From a phage: 64,000 nucleotides of DNA. Below the pieces are notes generated by a model. That model ran no database searches. It saw only the letters and a program-made list of their open reading frames with translations, and was not told where the DNA came from. Positions 2,459-44,281 of this stretch are shown in pieces (the first letter of the stretch is position 1; every line of letters begins with the position of its first letter). The position numbers and the translations under genes are program-made. Location of the stretch: the sequence record OZ335959.1. One strand, given 5' to 3'.

Positions 2459-3094
2459 TCACAGTTCAGATGCTACGGTGATTACTGCTTCAATGTTTTC
2501 TGCCGAGCGTTTAATGTCAAGATACACATTACCATTTTTAGCGATTTTACATGACATTCCGATATCAGTAAATTTCTGAATATGATGTTCCATCATTTTG
2601 TATCCAAAAATTCGCATATTTCCATTGTTGTTAATTTCAAAATTACGAATTCCGTGAGTGCGTTTTTCTAAAATAGCAAGATAGTTACTGCGGTAAGTTT
2701 CAACCTTTTTAAGAACAAATCCATTTTCATCTAAAAGTTTTAACATGAAGTCTTTATCTTCTTCCATATCGGAAGTAATCTCACGAGCTTTACGAGTTGC
2801 TCGTTTTTTCAGCAGTTCAGGAGCATTTTCCTGTGCGTATAAAGTTGCTGCATTTGAAATAATATCCTGAGCTTCGCCTGTGATGATTAATCCATCACCA
2901 GATTTCTCCACCAGGCCTTTTTTAATCAATACCCCAATATTACTATTAACTACTGCGTTACCTAAATCTGGATGCACCTCACGAACTTCTGCAGCTGTAA
3001 TGAAATCTTTCTTAGCAATGGTAATTAAAATCGCAGCAGTTTTTTCATTCAGAACATCGTTAGAAGCTTTGATGATGTAAGTTACTTTAGACAT
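2459..3094 (-). CDS. motA: Middle-transcription activator MotA
   Basis: 211-aa ORF MSKVTYIIKASNDVLNEKTAAILITIAKKDF... recognised as T4 MotA; exact T4 length. Confidence 0.93.
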   Translation of the reverse strand: MSKVTYIIKASNDVLNEKTAAILITIAKKDFITAAEVREVHPDLGNAVVNSNIGVLIKKGLVEKSGDGLIITGEAQDIISNAATLYAQENAPELLKKRATRKAREITSDMEEDKDFMLKLLDENGFVLKKVETYRSNYLAILEKRTHGIRNFEINNNGNMRIFGYKMMEHHIQKFTDIGMSCKIAKNGNVYLDIKRSAENIEAVITVASEL

Positions 3095-3135
3095 TTTCTA
3101 ATCTCCGTAATTCTGTATCAGTAGTTGATAGTTGT

Positions 3136-3165
3136 ATAGTACCACAGTATGCTTTGGTTGTAAAC
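3136..3165 (-). promoter_or_regulatory. Early promoter upstream of motA
   Basis: Minus strand GTTTAC, 18 bp, TACTAT with TGTGG upstream of -10 and A/T-rich UP region. Confidence 0.55.
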
Positions 3166-3185
3166 CGTTTTGTGAAAAAATTTTT

Positions 3186-3216
3186 GAAATAAAAAAGGGA
3201 GAGCCTCGGCTCTCCC
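3186..3216 (-). terminator. Rho-independent terminator after gene 52 / small ORF
   Basis: Minus strand GGGAGAGCC-GAGG-CTCTCCC hairpin followed by TTTTTTATTT. Confidence 0.6.
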
Positions 3217-3221
3217 TAAAA

Positions 3222-3371
3222 TTACTGCATGACTGTGATAACTGTCATGATAACACGTTGAATTCCGAATGCAAGAAGACCTCCTGCTACGGCTGGAACA
3301 ACACCTAAACCCGCTAGTAAAATGCTACCAGATACTAATGCCGCGCTTGTAATACCAATGAATGGACTCAT
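3222..3371 (-). CDS. Small hydrophobic protein, 49 aa (below track length cutoff)
   Basis: ATG overlaps gene 52 TGA (ATGA); translation MSPFIGITSAALVSGSILLAGLGVVPAVAGGLLAFGIQRVIMTVITVMQ is one or two TM helices. Confidence 0.45.
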   Translation of the reverse strand: MSPFIGITSAALVSGSILLAGLGVVPAVAGGLLAFGIQRVIMTVITVMQ

Positions 3372-4696
3372 TTGATTTCCTCTAAATCTTTAGTGTATTC
3401 GGTAACTACATCAGTAGTTTTCCAATATTCGTTTTCTTCTTTCTTAGCTTTAGCTTCTTCAGCAAGTTTCTTTGCTTCGTCGGAAGTCATATGAAAAATA
3501 TTCATTCCAACTAGTTTATCAACATAAGAAGAATACATATCAATTTTAGAAAGTTCTTCGGTCAGTTCTTTGCGAGTTTTACCTTGTACAACAATTTCAC
3601 CTGAAATCACTTTCTTAATGAAATGCGCCTTGGCAAAGGCTAAACGAAATGCTGATTCAGTTTCTTTGATTTTGTTATCAATTCGTTTTTGGACATAAGT
3701 TTTACGAACTTCAACGAAGTCTTTGATTAAATCAACTACGTTATCGTAAACTTGTAGCTTTCCTTTCTCATTAATAACGGTAATATTCTGGGAACGACGC
3801 TCAATCAACCCGAAGTCTTTCATAATTTTTGCATGGCGTTCTTCTTCGTTATCACTCAAAGAGTATTCTTTGCGGAATTTAACTTTGAAGCCAAAGCCAT
3901 GCTCACCACAAGCATCATCCCACGTAATGAAGCCTTTATCTTCAAGCGGGTCTAAGATTTTACTCACATAAGTTTCACGATCATACTTATACGGAATCTC
4001 AGTGATATGCATTTGAGTTCGTGAAGTAAACTTGTACGTTCCACGAATTTCATATTGACCGTCAATTTCAACGACTTCACCACGAAATTCTGGGAATTCT
4101 ACCTTAGGTTTAGTTACTTTCTTTCCTTGAAGAGCTTGCAATACAGCTTTCTTGACAGAAGAAACACTATGAGGAAGAATGTAAGTTGCATAACCAGTTG
4201 CAATACCGGAAACACCATTAAGAAGAACAGTAGGAATAATAGGCAAATAGAAAGCAGGCGGAATGTGTTCTTTATCTTGATGTACCGGAGCATATTCAGT
4301 ATCTTTATATACATTATAGAAATTTTTACTTACACGAGCAAAAATATAACGACTTGCCGCTGCTTTTTGAACGGTACGAGAACCAAAGTTTCCTTGACCA
4401 TCTAACAAAGGAAAGTTATTATTCCAAGTGTTAGCCATCAAAGCACCTGCGTCTTGCGCAGAGTTTTCACCATGATGATATCCAAGGTCTGCTACACCGC
4501 CTGCAATAGAAGCGAGTTTGTGAAACTTATCTTTATTTCCTCGTGCCAAATCAAGAGCTCGAGCAATAACAAATCGTTGAACTGGCTTAAATCCATCAAT
4601 CATATTTGGGATAGCACGATTTTCAACCGTGTACATAGCATAAGCCAATGCTTCATTATCAATGATACTTTTTAAATCGCGATTATTCAGTTGCAT
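3368..4696 (-). CDS. 52: DNA topoisomerase II medium subunit gp52 (GyrA-like)
   Basis: 442-aa ORF MQLNNRDLKSIIDNEALAYAMYTVENRAIPNMIDGFKPVQRF... with type II topoisomerase A-subunit N-terminal motifs; T4 gp52 length. Confidence 0.93.
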   Translation of the reverse strand: MQLNNRDLKSIIDNEALAYAMYTVENRAIPNMIDGFKPVQRFVIARALDLARGNKDKFHKLASIAGGVADLGYHHGENSAQDAGALMANTWNNNFPLLDGQGNFGSRTVQKAAASRYIFARVSKNFYNVYKDTEYAPVHQDKEHIPPAFYLPIIPTVLLNGVSGIATGYATYILPHSVSSVKKAVLQALQGKKVTKPKVEFPEFRGEVVEIDGQYEIRGTYKFTSRTQMHITEIPYKYDRETYVSKILDPLEDKGFITWDDACGEHGFGFKVKFRKEYSLSDNEEERHAKIMKDFGLIERRSQNITVINEKGKLQVYDNVVDLIKDFVEVRKTYVQKRIDNKIKETESAFRLAFAKAHFIKKVISGEIVVQGKTRKELTEELSKIDMYSSYVDKLVGMNIFHMTSDEAKKLAEEAKAKKEENEYWKTTDVVTEYTKDLEEIK

Positions 4697-4700
4697 AAAT

Positions 4701-4841
4701 TTACCATACTAGTGAATGTAGTGCCATAATAACATCAGAAATGAAAAGCACGACTTGAATTAATCCGAACATTACTCCATAATATAGTGCTACCAATAAA
4801 GTAGCAAGGGCTAATGAATAGCCCAAGATTTTCTTAATCAT
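4701..4841 (-). CDS. Small membrane protein, 46 aa
   Basis: Hand-translated MIKKILGYSLALATLLVALYYGVMFGLIQVVLFISDVIMALHSLVW; start overlaps stop of upstream small ORF. Confidence 0.4.
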   Translation of the reverse strand: MIKKILGYSLALATLLVALYYGVMFGLIQVVLFISDVIMALHSLVW

Positions 4842-4992
4842 TAGTAGATAACAACACAAATGTTAAATATGCACACATACCCTGGGCTAAAGCTTGTGAA
4901 AACACACTGCTAGCATCGATACAGATAGTTAAAACACATGCTACTATCCAACAAATAAATGAAATAACTCCTAATAATTTTGCGATATTCAT
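4834..4992 (-). CDS. Small membrane protein, 52 aa (ac-like by position)
   Basis: Hand-translated MNIAKLLGVISFICWIVACVLTICIDASSVFSQALAQGMCAYLTFVLLSTND; lies between stp and 52 as T4 ac does. Confidence 0.4.
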   Translation of the reverse strand: MNIAKLLGVISFICWIVACVLTICIDASSVFSQALAQGMCAYLTFVLLSTND

Positions 4993-7848: not shown

Positions 7849-8043
7849 TTATTTGAATTGTGCAATTCTTTTTTCTAAACAATCTGCGTAAGATTTCATT
7901 GAGATGAACTGTGAAAGCAGTAATTCTTGCTCAACTTCATTAATCGTTAGAAACTTTGTGCTTTCTAAAAATTTGCTCAGTGCATTAATTTTGAGCATTA
8001 ATTGATCGTATTCTTCTTTTACTCGTGCTTGATAACCTAACAT
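7849..8043 (-). CDS. Hypothetical protein, 64 aa (rIIB-distal)
   Basis: Track ORF directly downstream of rIIB. Confidence 0.5.
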   Translation of the reverse strand: MLGYQARVKEEYDQLMLKINALSKFLESTKFLTINEVEQELLLSQFISMKSYADCLEKRIAQFK

Positions 8044-29231: not shown

Positions 29232-29594
29232 TTAAAAGAATTTAAATTTTTTCTTTGACCTTTTATTAAATGCATCTTGTAGTTGCATTGTAATACATTT
29301 TTCTACATGAGGAGCTAACTCAGCTTTTCTTTCTTGGTCAAGAACAGCAAAGTCCATTACGACTTTTCCATCAACCCAATCTAATTTTGTCACATACACA
29401 ATGTGTGTAGAACCGTCTTCTAGTTTAATGACAATCTCCTGGATAACATTTTCCATGGCAGATTTAATTATCTTAAGAGATTCATTAAAAAGACGTTCTT
29501 TTCTTTCTTCTTCCCCCTCCGAAGAGGGGGATTCATCGATAATTTCTAGATCTAAATCTAAATCATCTTTATTCATTAAATTCTTCCATATCAC
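29232..29594 (-). CDS. 40: Acidic protein, 120 aa (gene 40 position)
   Basis: Track ORF between uvsX and 41, as T4 gene 40. Confidence 0.55.
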   Translation of the reverse strand: MIWKNLMNKDDLDLDLEIIDESPSSEGEEERKERLFNESLKIIKSAMENVIQEIVIKLEDGSTHIVYVTKLDWVDGKVVMDFAVLDQERKAELAPHVEKCITMQLQDAFNKRSKKKFKFF

Positions 29595-30750
29595 TTAACT
29601 GATCTAGGTCAGTTTCTAAATCAGCTGCTGATTTACTTTTACTTTCTGGAGATTTAAATTTTTCAACCTTTGAGTTAATCAATTCATCAACTTCAGCTTC
29701 AACAATTTCATTACTATCAATAGCACCTAACTGATAAGCGCGTTTAATAGCATCTCGGAATGGCTGATGCTTAAATAAAGGACCCCAGAATGTAGTGCAA
29801 TTGGTATCTTTTGCACGCCAAGATTTTTCTTCGCGAATCATCTCGCCGGTTTCTTCGTCAAGAAATTCACGAGCATACCAGCCATTTTTAGGTTTTACCA
29901 CAAATCCTAATTCAAGAGCCATATCTAACAATCCAGAATAAGGATCGATGCCACCGTCAAATTTAACATCAATAAAGAATTTACTTTTTTCTTTAACGGT
30001 ACGAGATTTTTCTACATTTAGAACAAATTGATACCCCTGAAGATCAGAACCATCTTTAATCTGGCGCTTACCGATAATGAATACAGTATCAGCCGAATAC
30101 ATTACGCCTGTACCACCTGTCATCACGGTTTTACTAAACATTTCAATTGTTTCAATTGTATGGTTAACCGCAACACACGGAATGTTTTTAATACTAAAAT
30201 AAGGAGTAACAATACGAAATAATGACTTCAGCGATTTAGCACGAGTCATATCTGCCACAGATTTTTCATTCAAGGCATCTTCCGTTTCTTTCTTAGAAGC
30301 CATATTACCGATTGAGTCGATGAATACAATAACTTTTTCACCACGCTCAATAGCTTCAAGCTGATTCACCATATCAATTTTCAGTTGTTCAACTGACTGG
30401 ATTGGGGTATGAATTACTCGTTCCGGGTCAACTCCCATGGATCGCAAATAAGCGGGAGTAATACCAAATTCGCTATCATAGAATAGACATACCGCGTCAG
30501 GATATTTGTTCAAATACGCCGCAACCATAGTCAAAGACATATTTGATTTAAAGTGTTTAGAAGGACCTGCAAAAATGGTTAAACCAGACTGCATACCACC
30601 GTCAATCGCACCTGAAATAGCGATATTAAGCATTGGGATTTTTGTACGGATTACATCCTTTTCATTAAAGAATTTAGATGTAGTCAGTTCAGCAGTCATT
30701 TTAGAAGTGGAAGCTTTAATCAAACGGGATTTTAAATCTGCAATAGACAT
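29569..30750 (-). CDS. uvsX: UvsX recombinase (RecA/Rad51 family)
   Basis: 393-aa ORF MSIADLKSRLIKASTSKMTAELTTSKFFNEKDVIRTKIPMLNIAISGA... with Walker A GPSKHFKS. Confidence 0.93.
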   Translation of the reverse strand: MSIADLKSRLIKASTSKMTAELTTSKFFNEKDVIRTKIPMLNIAISGAIDGGMQSGLTIFAGPSKHFKSNMSLTMVAAYLNKYPDAVCLFYDSEFGITPAYLRSMGVDPERVIHTPIQSVEQLKIDMVNQLEAIERGEKVIVFIDSIGNMASKKETEDALNEKSVADMTRAKSLKSLFRIVTPYFSIKNIPCVAVNHTIETIEMFSKTVMTGGTGVMYSADTVFIIGKRQIKDGSDLQGYQFVLNVEKSRTVKEKSKFFIDVKFDGGIDPYSGLLDMALELGFVVKPKNGWYAREFLDEETGEMIREEKSWRAKDTNCTTFWGPLFKHQPFRDAIKRAYQLGAIDSNEIVEAEVDELINSKVEKFKSPESKSKSAADLETDLDQLSDMEEFNE

Positions 30751-30827
30751 TCATTTTTTCCATAGGCATCATTATATTTTCCTCACTGGTTAAAGATAGA
30801 GTAATTATAACACAATAAATTTAGGCA

Positions 30828-31676
30828 TTAATCAACTGCTATTGGATGAATAGCATTAAACTTATGAAACGCTTCTGATTTTTCTTTGCGCGAAACACAC
30901 ATGCGAAGAACCTTTAATGGCTCGTCTTCTTCACCCAACGATTTTCTCTTTTCAATATTTGATGTTTTCCAACGAGCTTGCTCTGGAAACTCTCTATTGA
31001 TTTGCTCAAGAGCTCTATTATGTTTTGAATTACTACGAATTGAACTACATCCGCCAGGAGCTTGCGCTTTTCCAGATACAACCAGATATTTGAACAAGGC
31101 CAAATGCGGATAACCTTGATTAATTAAATTGAGAAATGCATACATATCTTCGCATAAATCAATTTTTCCATACCCAATTTGTTCTGTTGTAAGTTTTCCA
31201 AGGTCATACCAAGTATTCGTGAATCCATATGAATTTTCACGATAATTACCCCAAGATGAAGTAATTTTAAAAATTGGTAAACGAGCATGACCATGATAAT
31301 ACCCGCAATCCATGGCATCTTCAACGTATTGAATCAATTCATAGAACTGTTCACGGGTTAATTGATTAATTTTATCTACGCAGCGACGATCATCTTTCTT
31401 TCGCATTGAACTCATACGAATAGTAGTATCATCATCAATCATCCAAATTCGTTGACCTGCATACATTTCAGTAATTGCTTTGCGAGTGCCAGCAATTCCA
31501 TTAACATCATCGGGAATAGTTATAATTTTGGCTCTAGACCCGTAAGCGTCATAATAAGCTTTTTCTTCGTGTTCACGTACTACAATATGAGGTTCATAAT
31601 CAGTCGGAAACATATCAAGGGCAGAAACTGCCCCTACGCGTTGATAGCTTGGAATTACGAATTGAATCATTTCCAC
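30828..31676 (-). CDS. Glycosyltransferase, GT-A-like with DxD motif (candidate beta-glucosyl-HMC alpha-glucosyltransferase)
   Basis: 282-aa ORF with RIWMIDDDTT; occupies the uvsX-42 interval where T4 has beta-gt, but is not T4 beta-gt. Confidence 0.6.
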   Translation of the reverse strand: MEMIQFVIPSYQRVGAVSALDMFPTDYEPHIVVREHEEKAYYDAYGSRAKIITIPDDVNGIAGTRKAITEMYAGQRIWMIDDDTTIRMSSMRKKDDRRCVDKINQLTREQFYELIQYVEDAMDCGYYHGHARLPIFKITSSWGNYRENSYGFTNTWYDLGKLTTEQIGYGKIDLCEDMYAFLNLINQGYPHLALFKYLVVSGKAQAPGGCSSIRSNSKHNRALEQINREFPEQARWKTSNIEKRKSLGEEDEPLKVLRMCVSRKEKSEAFHKFNAIHPIAVD

Positions 31677-32407
31677 TCACCATTATAATCTTTTTTCGCA
31701 ATATGAGTTTCGCCAGTTTTCCACCAATGGTCAACCAAATAAAAATGACGGGAATACACATGAAGGCTTCCGACATTCCATATAATGGAACCTGCTTTAT
31801 ACTGACGAGTTGAATCACCTGCATTCAAATCAGATACTAATTTATCTAGTACGTATTTTTGCCATGCATAATCATTACGGAATCCGAAGACTACGTCATT
31901 TGAACGCATGCTTACTACTGCATTGACTTTCTTATCACGAATCAGGTACTGTACTGTATTCGTACACATGAAATCTGACATACCGTCTTTATTGTAGTCA
32001 AACTGCATGGATGGACGAGTATAAATCATGATACCACGTCGAGAATCAGGATTTTGACCAAGCTCAGCTAAACACATATCATACTGGGCATAGTTATCTT
32101 CTGACCAGATGGCCCAACCATAATTCGAGTTAATTTCGCCTTTAGAAGATGCTACCTGTTGCCAAATCTTCGGTGTTTCACCCGGAATATCTTTAACAAA
32201 CAAACTTTTAGATTTATACCATTCAAGTTCACGCTGAATGTATTCATCATTAAGAGCGCCAAAAATAAAAGGTTCATCTGCTACAAATGATGCGCCAATA
32301 ATTTCAATAGTTTTAACACCAGTTTTATCAATTACGAAATCTTTTTCCTTTAACGCAATTCCCAAATGAAGACGAGTTTCTTCAACTGTCAAAGAGTCAT
32401 TAATCAT
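31667..32407 (-). CDS. 42: dCMP hydroxymethylase gp42
   Basis: 246-aa ORF MINDSLTVEETRLHLGIALKEKDFVIDKTGVKTIEIIGASF...; thymidylate-synthase-like fold; T4 gp42 length. Confidence 0.92.
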   Translation of the reverse strand: MINDSLTVEETRLHLGIALKEKDFVIDKTGVKTIEIIGASFVADEPFIFGALNDEYIQRELEWYKSKSLFVKDIPGETPKIWQQVASSKGEINSNYGWAIWSEDNYAQYDMCLAELGQNPDSRRGIMIYTRPSMQFDYNKDGMSDFMCTNTVQYLIRDKKVNAVVSMRSNDVVFGFRNDYAWQKYVLDKLVSDLNAGDSTRQYKAGSIIWNVGSLHVYSRHFYLVDHWWKTGETHIAKKDYNGEWK

Positions 32408-32414
32408 TTAAACC

Positions 32415-32564
32415 TCAATTGATGCATTCATATTTAACTTGTAACAGTAATAAACCCCAACCTATAATAAGTGTCGGAATCATACAAGGAACCGTTACGC
32501 TATAGTATATACTTATTATAATCATCAAGATTAAAAGCAATACTGCTAAAATTTTGCTTTTCAT
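32415..32564 (-). CDS. Small membrane protein, 49 aa
   Basis: Hand-translated MKSKILAVLLLILMIIISIYYSVTVPCMIPTLIIGWGLLLLQVKYECIN; ATG overlaps imm TGA. Confidence 0.4.
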   Translation of the reverse strand: MKSKILAVLLLILMIIISIYYSVTVPCMIPTLIIGWGLLLLQVKYECIN

Positions 32565-32812
32565 TCCTTCTCTCTGATGATAATTACTTGATTTTGCTGT
32601 GCAGATTTTTTAGTTTCACCAGCAATTGACCAAATAAAGGTAATAAACCAACCAATAATTGACCAGTTAAACAGTAAAGATGTGAAAAAGATTCCTACTG
32701 TCGATTTTGACCCGCGCATCAAGGCGATGAACCACGGAAGCATGTATATAATAATAGCCAACACGCCTGAAACTAAAACCATAAAAATTGAACCTGCTAC
32801 TAAAGTTTCCAT
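32561..32812 (-). CDS. imm: Imm superinfection immunity membrane protein
   Basis: 83-aa ORF METLVAGSIFMVLVSGVLAIIIYMLPWFIALMRGSKSTVGIFFTSLLFNWSIIGWFITF... recognised as T4 Imm. Confidence 0.9.
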   Translation of the reverse strand: METLVAGSIFMVLVSGVLAIIIYMLPWFIALMRGSKSTVGIFFTSLLFNWSIIGWFITFIWSIAGETKKSAQQNQVIIIREKE

Positions 32813-33210: not shown

Positions 33211-33468
33211 TCAAATACAAGTAGTAATTACTCCAGTAGTGCTTACACAGGTATTACCTAATTGAACACCAAGCGTTCCATTAGTATTCATATGAAGATT
33301 ATCATCAATTTTTGTTGATACTTTACCATTCATGTGAATAACAGTATTAGATTCAATCACATTCTGAGTGTCATTTTCAATATCAATAAATGGAACAGCT
33401 GCTAATGCAACTAGAACAACTGCTAATGCAACTAAACACGCTGCTAAACAACCATAAACAATTTTCAT
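33211..33468 (-). CDS. Small membrane-anchored protein, about 85 aa (trimmed)
   Basis: Track ORF 33211-33579 includes the promoter; ATG at 33466-33468; product starts MKIVYGCLAACLVALAVVLVALAAVPF. Confidence 0.5.
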   Translation of the reverse strand: MKIVYGCLAACLVALAVVLVALAAVPFIDIENDTQNVIESNTVIHMNGKVSTKIDDNLHMNTNGTLGVQLGNTCVSTTGVITTCI

Positions 33469-33502
33469 TTTATTCTCCAAATCCGTATCAGTTGATAGTT
33501 GT

Positions 33503-33532
33503 ATAGTACCATGGAAGAACAGAGATGTAAAC
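33503..33532 (-). promoter_or_regulatory. Early promoter
   Basis: Minus strand GTTTAC, 18 bp, TACTAT; member of the repeat module family. Confidence 0.55.
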
Positions 33533-33613
33533 GGTTTTGTGAAAAAATTTTTTAATGAATTTACAGGACCTAGAATCATCTGTTTTTCATAAGTATAGAT
33601 TTATATTACTTGT

Positions 33614-43062: not shown

Positions 43063-43080
43063 AAAGGGCCGAAGCCCTTT
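43063..43080 (-). promoter_or_regulatory. Stem-loop at 3' end of alpha-gt (GGGC-TTCG-GCCC)
   Basis: Perfect tetraloop hairpin overlapping the alpha-gt stop. Confidence 0.45.
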
Positions 43081-44281
43081 ATTTTGTAATAATGTCAAAC
43101 TGTTCTTTAAAGCAGAAGCTTGAATCTTGATGCTGATACAAAAATTCATAAGCTTTTTCGCGTTCACGGTCATAAAGAGCTCGGTCAGATGACAGTTCTT
43201 TAATACGCTCAAATGTTGATTCCATGTCATTTTCATCAAACCAAACGATACCGCTATCATGAGAAATTAACGGAGTATTATCAACACGGAATTTTAAATT
43301 TTCGCCAGTAGATTTCCAAAATACTGGAATTGTTCCACATGCACCAAGCTCGAGATGAGTATATTCTAAAGAACGTTGTAGATATTTTTTGTCCAACTTA
43401 CTCAGCTGATAACCAAATCCGGATTTACTCATGCGTTCAAGCATTTCGCTATTTACATAACGGTCAAGAATTTGCGTTGGCAAATTAGGAGCAATTTTAA
43501 TTTGATCTACTTGATGAAGACGATAATACTCGTATGGAATTCCTTTTTCTTTAATAGGAATGAACGCTGGAGAACGTTCCAGACCTTCCATAATAGTACT
43601 TAATCCCGCAGGTTTAAGATGTTTTTCGTGAAAATCAAACATCTGATAAAAACCTTTCCATGTAGTCGTACGACCGATCCAACGGTTGACATTCATATTA
43701 ATTTCAGAAACATCTTTCCAGTATGTTGATCGAACCTTCGCAATATCCATAGGAGGCTGAAAGTTGTATACAGTCGGTGCTTCTTCAATATCATCAAACA
43801 GAGAAACGGTTTCTGGATACCATTCTTTCATTAAAACTTTATTAAAATCACCATTATCAGAATGACTAAAAATAACATCAGCTCGACGAACAGTTTCTTC
43901 TAATCCCAAATTTCGACGTAAAGAAAGAGAAGAATGGTCATGTTGATAAACTACAACACGAACCGAAGGTTTAATGTTATCAATAATTTTTTTATAGTTA
44001 TTAATAGTGTCTTCTTCGACTGAAGTAGCAGGAACTGAATTGATAATTAGAATATCACAATCATTTACCAGCTTAAGTGTTTTATCGTATTCTTTTGCCA
44101 ATAAAACCGGAATTGAAAATGATTTATAATCATGCGCGCAATTACGGGTAAATGATTTATCTTTAGCATAAACCAAAGTTACTTCATGACCATTTTTAAT
44201 AAACCAATCACGTTGCTCAAGAGAAAATTTAGTTACGCCACAACCTTCAAGACCTCGAGCCATAAAAATGCATACTTTCAT
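43079..44281 (-). CDS. agt: DNA alpha-glucosyltransferase
   Basis: 400-aa ORF MKVCIFMARGLEGCGVTKFSLEQRDWFIKNGHEVTLVYAKDKSF...; T4 alpha-gt length and position after gene 47. Confidence 0.88.
   Translation of the reverse strand: MKVCIFMARGLEGCGVTKFSLEQRDWFIKNGHEVTLVYAKDKSFTRNCAHDYKSFSIPVLLAKEYDKTLKLVNDCDILIINSVPATSVEEDTINNYKKIIDNIKPSVRVVVYQHDHSSLSLRRNLGLEETVRRADVIFSHSDNGDFNKVLMKEWYPETVSLFDDIEEAPTVYNFQPPMDIAKVRSTYWKDVSEINMNVNRWIGRTTTWKGFYQMFDFHEKHLKPAGLSTIMEGLERSPAFIPIKEKGIPYEYYRLHQVDQIKIAPNLPTQILDRYVNSEMLERMSKSGFGYQLSKLDKKYLQRSLEYTHLELGACGTIPVFWKSTGENLKFRVDNTPLISHDSGIVWFDENDMESTFERIKELSSDRALYDREREKAYEFLYQHQDSSFCFKEQFDIITK

Follow-up and report, generated by a model that had tools for sequence, protein, structure and literature searches.

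A probable ortholog of the T2/T6 glucosyltransferase ba-gt (ggt) between uvsX and gene 42 of phage OZ335959.1

What kind of enzyme does this phage encode between uvsX and gene 42, and what would it do to the phage DNA? An earlier note, made from the letters of the 64,000-nucleotide stretch analysed here (the window, 64 kb of a genome of ~167 kb), had described a 282-aa protein in this interval. It had regarded the protein as a GT-A glycosyltransferase that replaces T4 beta-gt and, together with alpha-gt, produces the modification pattern of T2 and T6. A minus-strand open reading frame at 30828..31676, listed with 282 aa from a GTG, does exist, and it has uvsX on one side and gene 42 on the other. 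The location was therefore correctly described, but the length probably was not, as the coding sequence almost certainly begins at an ATG at 31670 and specifies 280 aa. The features of the locus are:

29569..30750, minus strand: uvsX recombinase, 90% identical to T4 UvsX, Pfam RecA and T4_UVSX_C
30828..31670, minus strand: ba-gt / ggt coding sequence, 280 aa plus stop, TAGT family (PF20691), T2/T6 identity, PHROG 842
31667..31670, minus strand: ATGA overlap of the ba-gt ATG (31670..31668) with the gene 42 TGA (31669..31667), read from the sequence
31667..32407, minus strand: gene 42, dCMP hydroxymethylase, 95.5% identical to T4 gp42, Pfam thymidylate synthase PF00303

In the direction of transcription, gene 42 is immediately upstream of ba-gt and uvsX is downstream, behind a spacer of 77 nt (30751..30827); neither segA nor beta-gt is present in the uvsX/ba-gt interval. 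Translation almost certainly begins from the ATG at 31670, because this ATG overlaps the stop codon of gene 42, because ggt is annotated in the same way in T2 (843 nt, overlapping gene 42 by 4 nt) and in the T6 record AP018814, and because the resulting N-terminus, MIQFVIPSY, is kept among relatives. The GTG at 31676 was dropped on these grounds as a mechanical ORF start. The ATGA overlap implies that ba-gt would be co-transcribed and co-expressed with gene 42, and its translation is probably coupled to that of gene 42. A scan for promoters and terminators over 30500..32700 gave counts not above the shuffled expectation (12 vs 9.6 +/- 3.3; 2 vs 1.1 +/- 1.1). One of the sequences seen there is a terminator-like hairpin, TAGGGGCAGTTTCTGCCCTTG, at 31616-31636 (minus strand), with a 9-bp stem including 5 G-C pairs, which lies inside ba-gt codons 12-18 and is identical in T6; the hit count of the scan was, as stated, not above chance. 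Farther upstream, between imm.1 and gene 43, the ORF list contains a 122-aa ORF (33211-33579, minus strand) with a predicted hydrophobic segment. In T2 this slot is occupied by a shorter hypothetical gene, RB51ORF048, and in T4 and T6 nothing is annotated there.

The identity of the 280-aa protein is indicated by direct comparison. Over its full length it matches T2 ggt at 275 of 280 positions (98%), and it shares 255 of 261 residues (98%) with the annotated T6 protein. It also matches PHROG 842, 'beta-glucosyl-HMC-alpha-glucosyltransferase' (3.1e-89), and the Pfam family PF20691, 'TET-associated glycosyltransferase' (TAGT), with 39.5 bits, above the gathering cutoff of 27.5 bits; the latter alignment covers residues 5-209 (counted on the 282-aa version) and positions 2-205 of the 205 in the profile. 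The T2/T6 assignment proposed earlier is thus borne out, and the matches are not to an unrelated glycosyltransferase family. NCBIfam has no family match for either ba-gt or alpha-gt. A Pfam 'RNA_binding' hit (PF01877) on the C-terminal tail was discarded as noise (E = 0.15, 12.8 bits vs a cutoff of 26.9 bits). The protein is also, as had been claimed, unlike the 351-aa GT-B enzyme of T4: BLASTP against T4 beta-gt gave a best E of 3.4, and the Pfam search found no match to PF09198, the T4 beta-gt family.

These data, read together with synteny, fold, motif conservation, the presence of alpha-gt and the absence of beta-gt from the window, make it very probable that the ORF is an ortholog of T2/T6 ba-gt (ggt), which would add a second glucose onto alpha-glucosyl-hmC to form gentiobiosyl-hmC. 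What the enzyme makes, and how this acts on host defences, is drawn from published work on orthologs with 98-99% identity. The feature itself is already known, because both the GT-A assignment and the synteny of TAGT with T4 beta-GT have been published (PMC13216743; PMC13390438). It is a member of an orthologous group at its usual genomic place, and the result is a correct annotation, not a discovery.

The partner enzyme is found where the earlier note had put it:

43079..44281, minus strand: alpha-gt, DNA alpha-glucosyltransferase, 400 aa, 91% identical to T4 and T6, PF11440 5.2e-236

The differences of this alpha-gt from the T4 and T6 proteins cluster in residues ~241-300 (43400-43560), for example YRLHQVDQIKIAPNLPTQILDRYV vs YGNREIDKMNLAPNQPAQILDCYI, and the rest is near-identical. 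In contrast to the presence of alpha-gt, tblastn with T4 beta-gt detected no beta-gt homolog in the 64-kb window (best E = 2.4), and tblastn found no segA in the window.

The GT-A assignment had been suggested by a DxD motif in RIWMIDDDTT. The motif is present, and the fold is upheld both by a structure model and by the invariance of DDD in the family. In the model, which is of medium confidence (pLDDT < 50 in three loops, residues 87-100, 131-149 and 200-210), the protein forms a single Rossmann-like nucleotide-diphospho-sugar transferase (GT-A) fold, and D79-D80-D81 directly follow strand E74-79, as befits a DxD motif. No solved structure of a close relative was found in the PDB: a sequence search with the family profile returned one weak match only, 9jma (AvpGT, GT2; E = 0.21). 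This weak alignment pairs IPSYQR with IPTYNR and DDD with DDD, which is consistent with the structural result and with the published placement of TAGT as a GT-A group that is a sister of GT2 (PMC13216743). Three motifs deserve mention, all with predicted roles:

31428..31436, minus strand: DDD (D79-D80-D81), codons GAT GAT GAT, predicted GT-A DxD motif binding metal and UDP-sugar
31638..31652, minus strand: P7-S8-Y9-Q10-R11 (IPSYQR), counterpart of the GT2 N-terminal nucleotide-binding motif IPTYNR
31146..31151, minus strand: E174-D175 (LCED), with D175 as the candidate catalytic base of an inverting mechanism

All three aspartates of DDD are invariant in an alignment of 10 homologs of 32-99% identity. 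HMMER, run exhaustively against 1.84 billion representatives, yielded 2143 family members at E <= 1e-3, and conservation was counted in an alignment of 151 diverged members. Every residue listed below is intact in the window protein:

R11: 149/149 non-gap
R63: 141/151
D79: 149/151
D80: 151/151
D81: 144/151
E174: 120/151
D175: 151/151
G186: about 150/151 (99%)
G206: 150/151
G207: 151/151
R212: 148/151

Thus DDD, R11, R63, D175, G206-G207 and R212 are conserved in 93-100% of the 151 members.

From these observations and from the known chemistry of the orthologs, the following pathway may be proposed. The product of gene 42 would supply hydroxymethyl-dCMP, and hence hmC in the phage DNA. Alpha-gt would glucosylate about three quarters of these hmC residues, in alpha linkage. 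The 280-aa GT-A enzyme, presumably made from one transcript with gene 42 through the ATGA overlap, would then use UDP-glucose to attach a second glucose, beta-1,6-linked to the first, with gentiobiosyl-hmC as the end product. The mechanism is probably an inverting, GT2-like one with an acidic base, because the linkage in the known product is beta and D175 is invariant; inversion of UDP-alpha-glucose would generate the beta linkage. As to individual residues, D79 and D81 of DDD may hold both a divalent metal and the diphosphate of UDP, the nucleotide may be bound by IPSYQR and R63, and D175 could serve as general base, activating the acceptor glucose at its 6-OH. The chemistry itself is documented in related phages. 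First, the T2 and T6 enzyme attaches glucose in beta-1,6 linkage to alpha-glucosyl-hmC, giving gentiobiosyl-hmC (PMC13216743; PMC6024577). Second, T6 lacking ba-gt contains alpha-glucosyl-hmC only (PMC11078745). Third, ten wild Tequatrovirus phages with alpha-GT and TAGT and without beta-GT were found by HPLC/MS to contain alpha-gentiobiosyl-hmC and no beta-glucosyl-hmC (PMC13390438).

How much of the hmC would be diglucosylated is a separate question, since carriers of the gene differ widely: T2 reaches 5%, EL/BGP/Geo reach about 40%, and T6 and EH2 about 67-72%. It is conceivable that in the window phage, too, the gene is present but weak, being hypomorphic or poorly expressed, so that the DNA is mainly mono-alpha-glucosylated as in T2. 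Despite having this gene, T2 has only ~5% of its hmC gentiobiosylated (PMC11078745), and the lesions in both deposited T6 records indicate that the gene can be lost in laboratory stocks. In the T6 record MH550421 (locus L001, ~7951-7953), codon Q10 of ggt has become TAG (amber), and the annotated product, of 261 aa, begins at an internal Met. In AP018814 (locus L004, 182-1021) and its RefSeq copy NC_054907, one GAT is missing from the GATGATGAT run, which changes DDD to DD and leaves 279 aa. These lesions may be real mutations of laboratory stocks or sequencing artefacts. Apart from them, the two T6 records differ from the window by six missense changes: Y40N, D55G, E68D, K92R, I101V and R106H. 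T2 differs by five substitutions, R11H, E68D, K92R, I101V and P251S. Codon 11 of T2 ggt (locus L003, MH751506, 7286-8128) encodes His, and the corresponding Arg codon of the window is at 31638-31640.

The window copy is free of both T6 lesions and of the two T2-specific substitutions, R11H and P251S; it is full length, and all its family-conserved residues are intact. Moreover, it is nearly identical to the enzyme of EH2 (vB_Eco_EH2, OZ034684, a Durham Tequatrovirus), with 277 of 280 residues shared and only E68D, K92R and I101V, all conservative, as differences. By HPLC/MS, the DNA of EH2 contains hmC of which about one third is unmodified and about two thirds is alpha-gentiobiosyl-hmC (PMC13390438). 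A weak contribution of the gene in the window phage is therefore unlikely, and the preferred reading remains that of a working ba-gt ortholog.

The same comparison suggests a possible explanation for the low level in T2. The T2 and EH2 enzymes show two differences only, H11R and S251P, and T2 has ~5% gentiobiosyl-hmC whereas EH2 has ~two thirds; because of this, the T2 enzyme may be a hypomorph. The ggt allele with R11H and P251S is identical in all eight T2-type records (six named T2, the RefSeq copy and SV76), and R11H affects an Arg that is kept in 149 of 149 diverged TAGT members. Tentatively, then, small natural allelic differences in the enzyme might set the ratio of mono- to diglucosylated hmC, T2 being a natural hypomorph. 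This idea combines sequence comparison with published compositions, and we regard it as plausible enough to state, yet somewhat less likely to be right than wrong. If it is true, the canonical R11 and P251 of the window protein would make the window phage a heavy diglucosylator like T6 and EH2; the real modification level in this phage is in any case predicted here from its relatives.

Comparison with more distant phages puts the word 'replaces' into perspective. In CC31-like Karamvirus and Serratia PS2-like phages the gene order is 42, TAGT, beta-gt homolog, uvsX. TAGT adjoins beta-gt in loci L009-L012, L015, L017-L019 and L021-L024 (about 3001-4900), of which L010 is Enterobacter phage CC31. 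The TAGT homologs of such distant loci show 48-66% identity, and their beta-gt homologs are 49-53% identical to T4 beta-gt. In the Klebsiella Jiaodavirus-like loci L013, L014 and L016, TAGT likewise follows 42, and then come a gap of ~340 nt and uvsX, without beta-gt. Since CC31-like phages hold TAGT beside beta-gt, the claim of replacement is right as to position, the enzyme being in the same place as T4 beta-gt, but it is a positional statement only. The slot seems to have room for two genes, of which T4 and T2/T6 each hold a different one. The combination of alpha-GT and beta-GT seen in T4 is rare, being found in 6 of 753 phage genomes; a TAGT paired with either alpha-GT or beta-GT is what is commonly seen (PMC13216743), and the window follows this common pattern.

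This diversity also raises the question of whether the window enzyme might be a TAGT of another specificity, with a different sugar donor or with bare hmC or beta-glucosyl-hmC as the acceptor. The family is large and diverse, as the 2143 representatives illustrate; the CC31-like relatives are next to beta-gt, not alpha-gt; and solitary TAGTs and TAGTs paired with alpha-GT or beta-GT may differ in specificity (PMC13216743). However, it is alpha-gt and not beta-gt that accompanies the gene in the window, and the protein has just 5 changes in 280 positions relative to that of T2 and 6-7 relative to that of T6. None of the differences from T2, T6 or EH2 costs the window protein a family-conserved residue, and the enzyme of EH2, three conservative differences away, comes from a phage whose DNA has been measured with gentiobiosyl-hmC (PMC13390438). 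A different specificity is thus very improbable, and synthesis of gentiobiosyl-hmC by the T2/T6-type enzyme is by far the better interpretation.

Among closer relatives the locus is widespread. By megablast, 603 phage records match it and 473 of them cover >= 80%; they are mostly Escherichia, Shigella and Yersinia Tequatrovirus, and many are annotated 'beta-glucosyl-HMC-alpha-glucosyltransferase'. The whole gene is found at >= 90% DNA identity in at least 475 phage records, and the best matches to the whole region are Tequatrovirus genomes, ~98% identical. The order 41-40-uvsX-ggt-42-imm-43 ... 47-alpha-gt is the same in the window, T2 and T6. In 18 of 20 IMG/VR loci the gene 42 match stops exactly at the start of TAGT (named exceptions L006, L023 and L024). 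The ORF listing is purely mechanical and gives no other support to a frame, so a chance reading frame or a remnant had to be considered, but this is effectively refuted by the strong profile matches (PF20691, PHROG 842), by the foldable GT-A model and by the intact TAGT ORF of 276-283 aa in 19 of 20 IMG/VR loci, across genera, down to 48% identity and always adjoining gene 42. In locus L022 (3001-3821 of a 171,911-bp IMG/VR contig) the TAGT frame breaks after 49 codons and resumes in another frame, with tblastn segments at 3001-3069 and 3063-3821; either the copy is frameshifted or pseudogenised, or the contig is misassembled at this point.

The DNA of the window phage would therefore probably be modified as in T2 and T6, bearing alpha-glucosyl-hmC and gentiobiosyl-hmC next to some bare hmC, and not as in T4, where alpha- and beta-glucosyl-hmC occur together. 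The earlier expectation that such a modification would affect sensitivity to glucose-dependent restriction is supported by the literature on the orthologs (PMC11078745; PMC13216743; bioRxiv 10.64898/2026.02.25.707755). Gentiobiosyl DNA is resistant to Brig1 in vitro; the DNA of T6 without ba-gt is a Brig1 substrate in vitro, and the phage is more sensitive to Brig1 (PMC11078745). Gentiobiosyl DNA also withstands deglucosylation by BapA, which frees glucose from the DNA of T6 lacking g-gt, but not from wild-type T6 DNA (bioRxiv 10.64898/2026.02.25.707755). Enzymes of the GmrSD type still target gentiobiosyl DNA (PMC13216743), and the bare hmC fraction stays a target of Brig3-type glycosylases. 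In practice, the modification type helps to predict, from the literature, the outcome of encounters with host defences.

Finally, the enzyme may be compared with known systems. T4 beta-gt (GT-B, PF09198) has the same slot between gene 42 and uvsX, uses the same donor, UDP-glucose, and likewise acts on hmC-containing phage DNA. However, it is a GT-B protein of 351 aa, and the window enzyme is a GT-A protein of 280 aa without sequence similarity to it (E = 3.4). The acceptors differ as well: bare hmC for T4 beta-gt and alpha-glucosyl-hmC for enzymes of the window type. In T4 the interval between 42 and uvsX also holds segA, which is missing from that of the window. Inverting GT-A enzymes of the GT2 family (AvpGT, 9jma; TarP, 6h1j; bacterial cellulose synthase, 4p00) are related in fold, with only 7-15% sequence identity. 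Their acceptors are a lipid, teichoic acid or glycan chain, whereas that of the window enzyme would be a sugar on DNA, and its C-terminal extension of ~70 residues has no counterpart in these three enzymes. The closest parallels are T2, T6 and EH2. T2 shares with the window the length of 280 aa, the ATGA overlap, the slot between 42 and uvsX, the alpha-gt partner and the conserved motifs; T6 has the same slot, overlap and partner; and EH2, with alpha-GT and TAGT and no beta-GT, matches the enzyme complement of the window.
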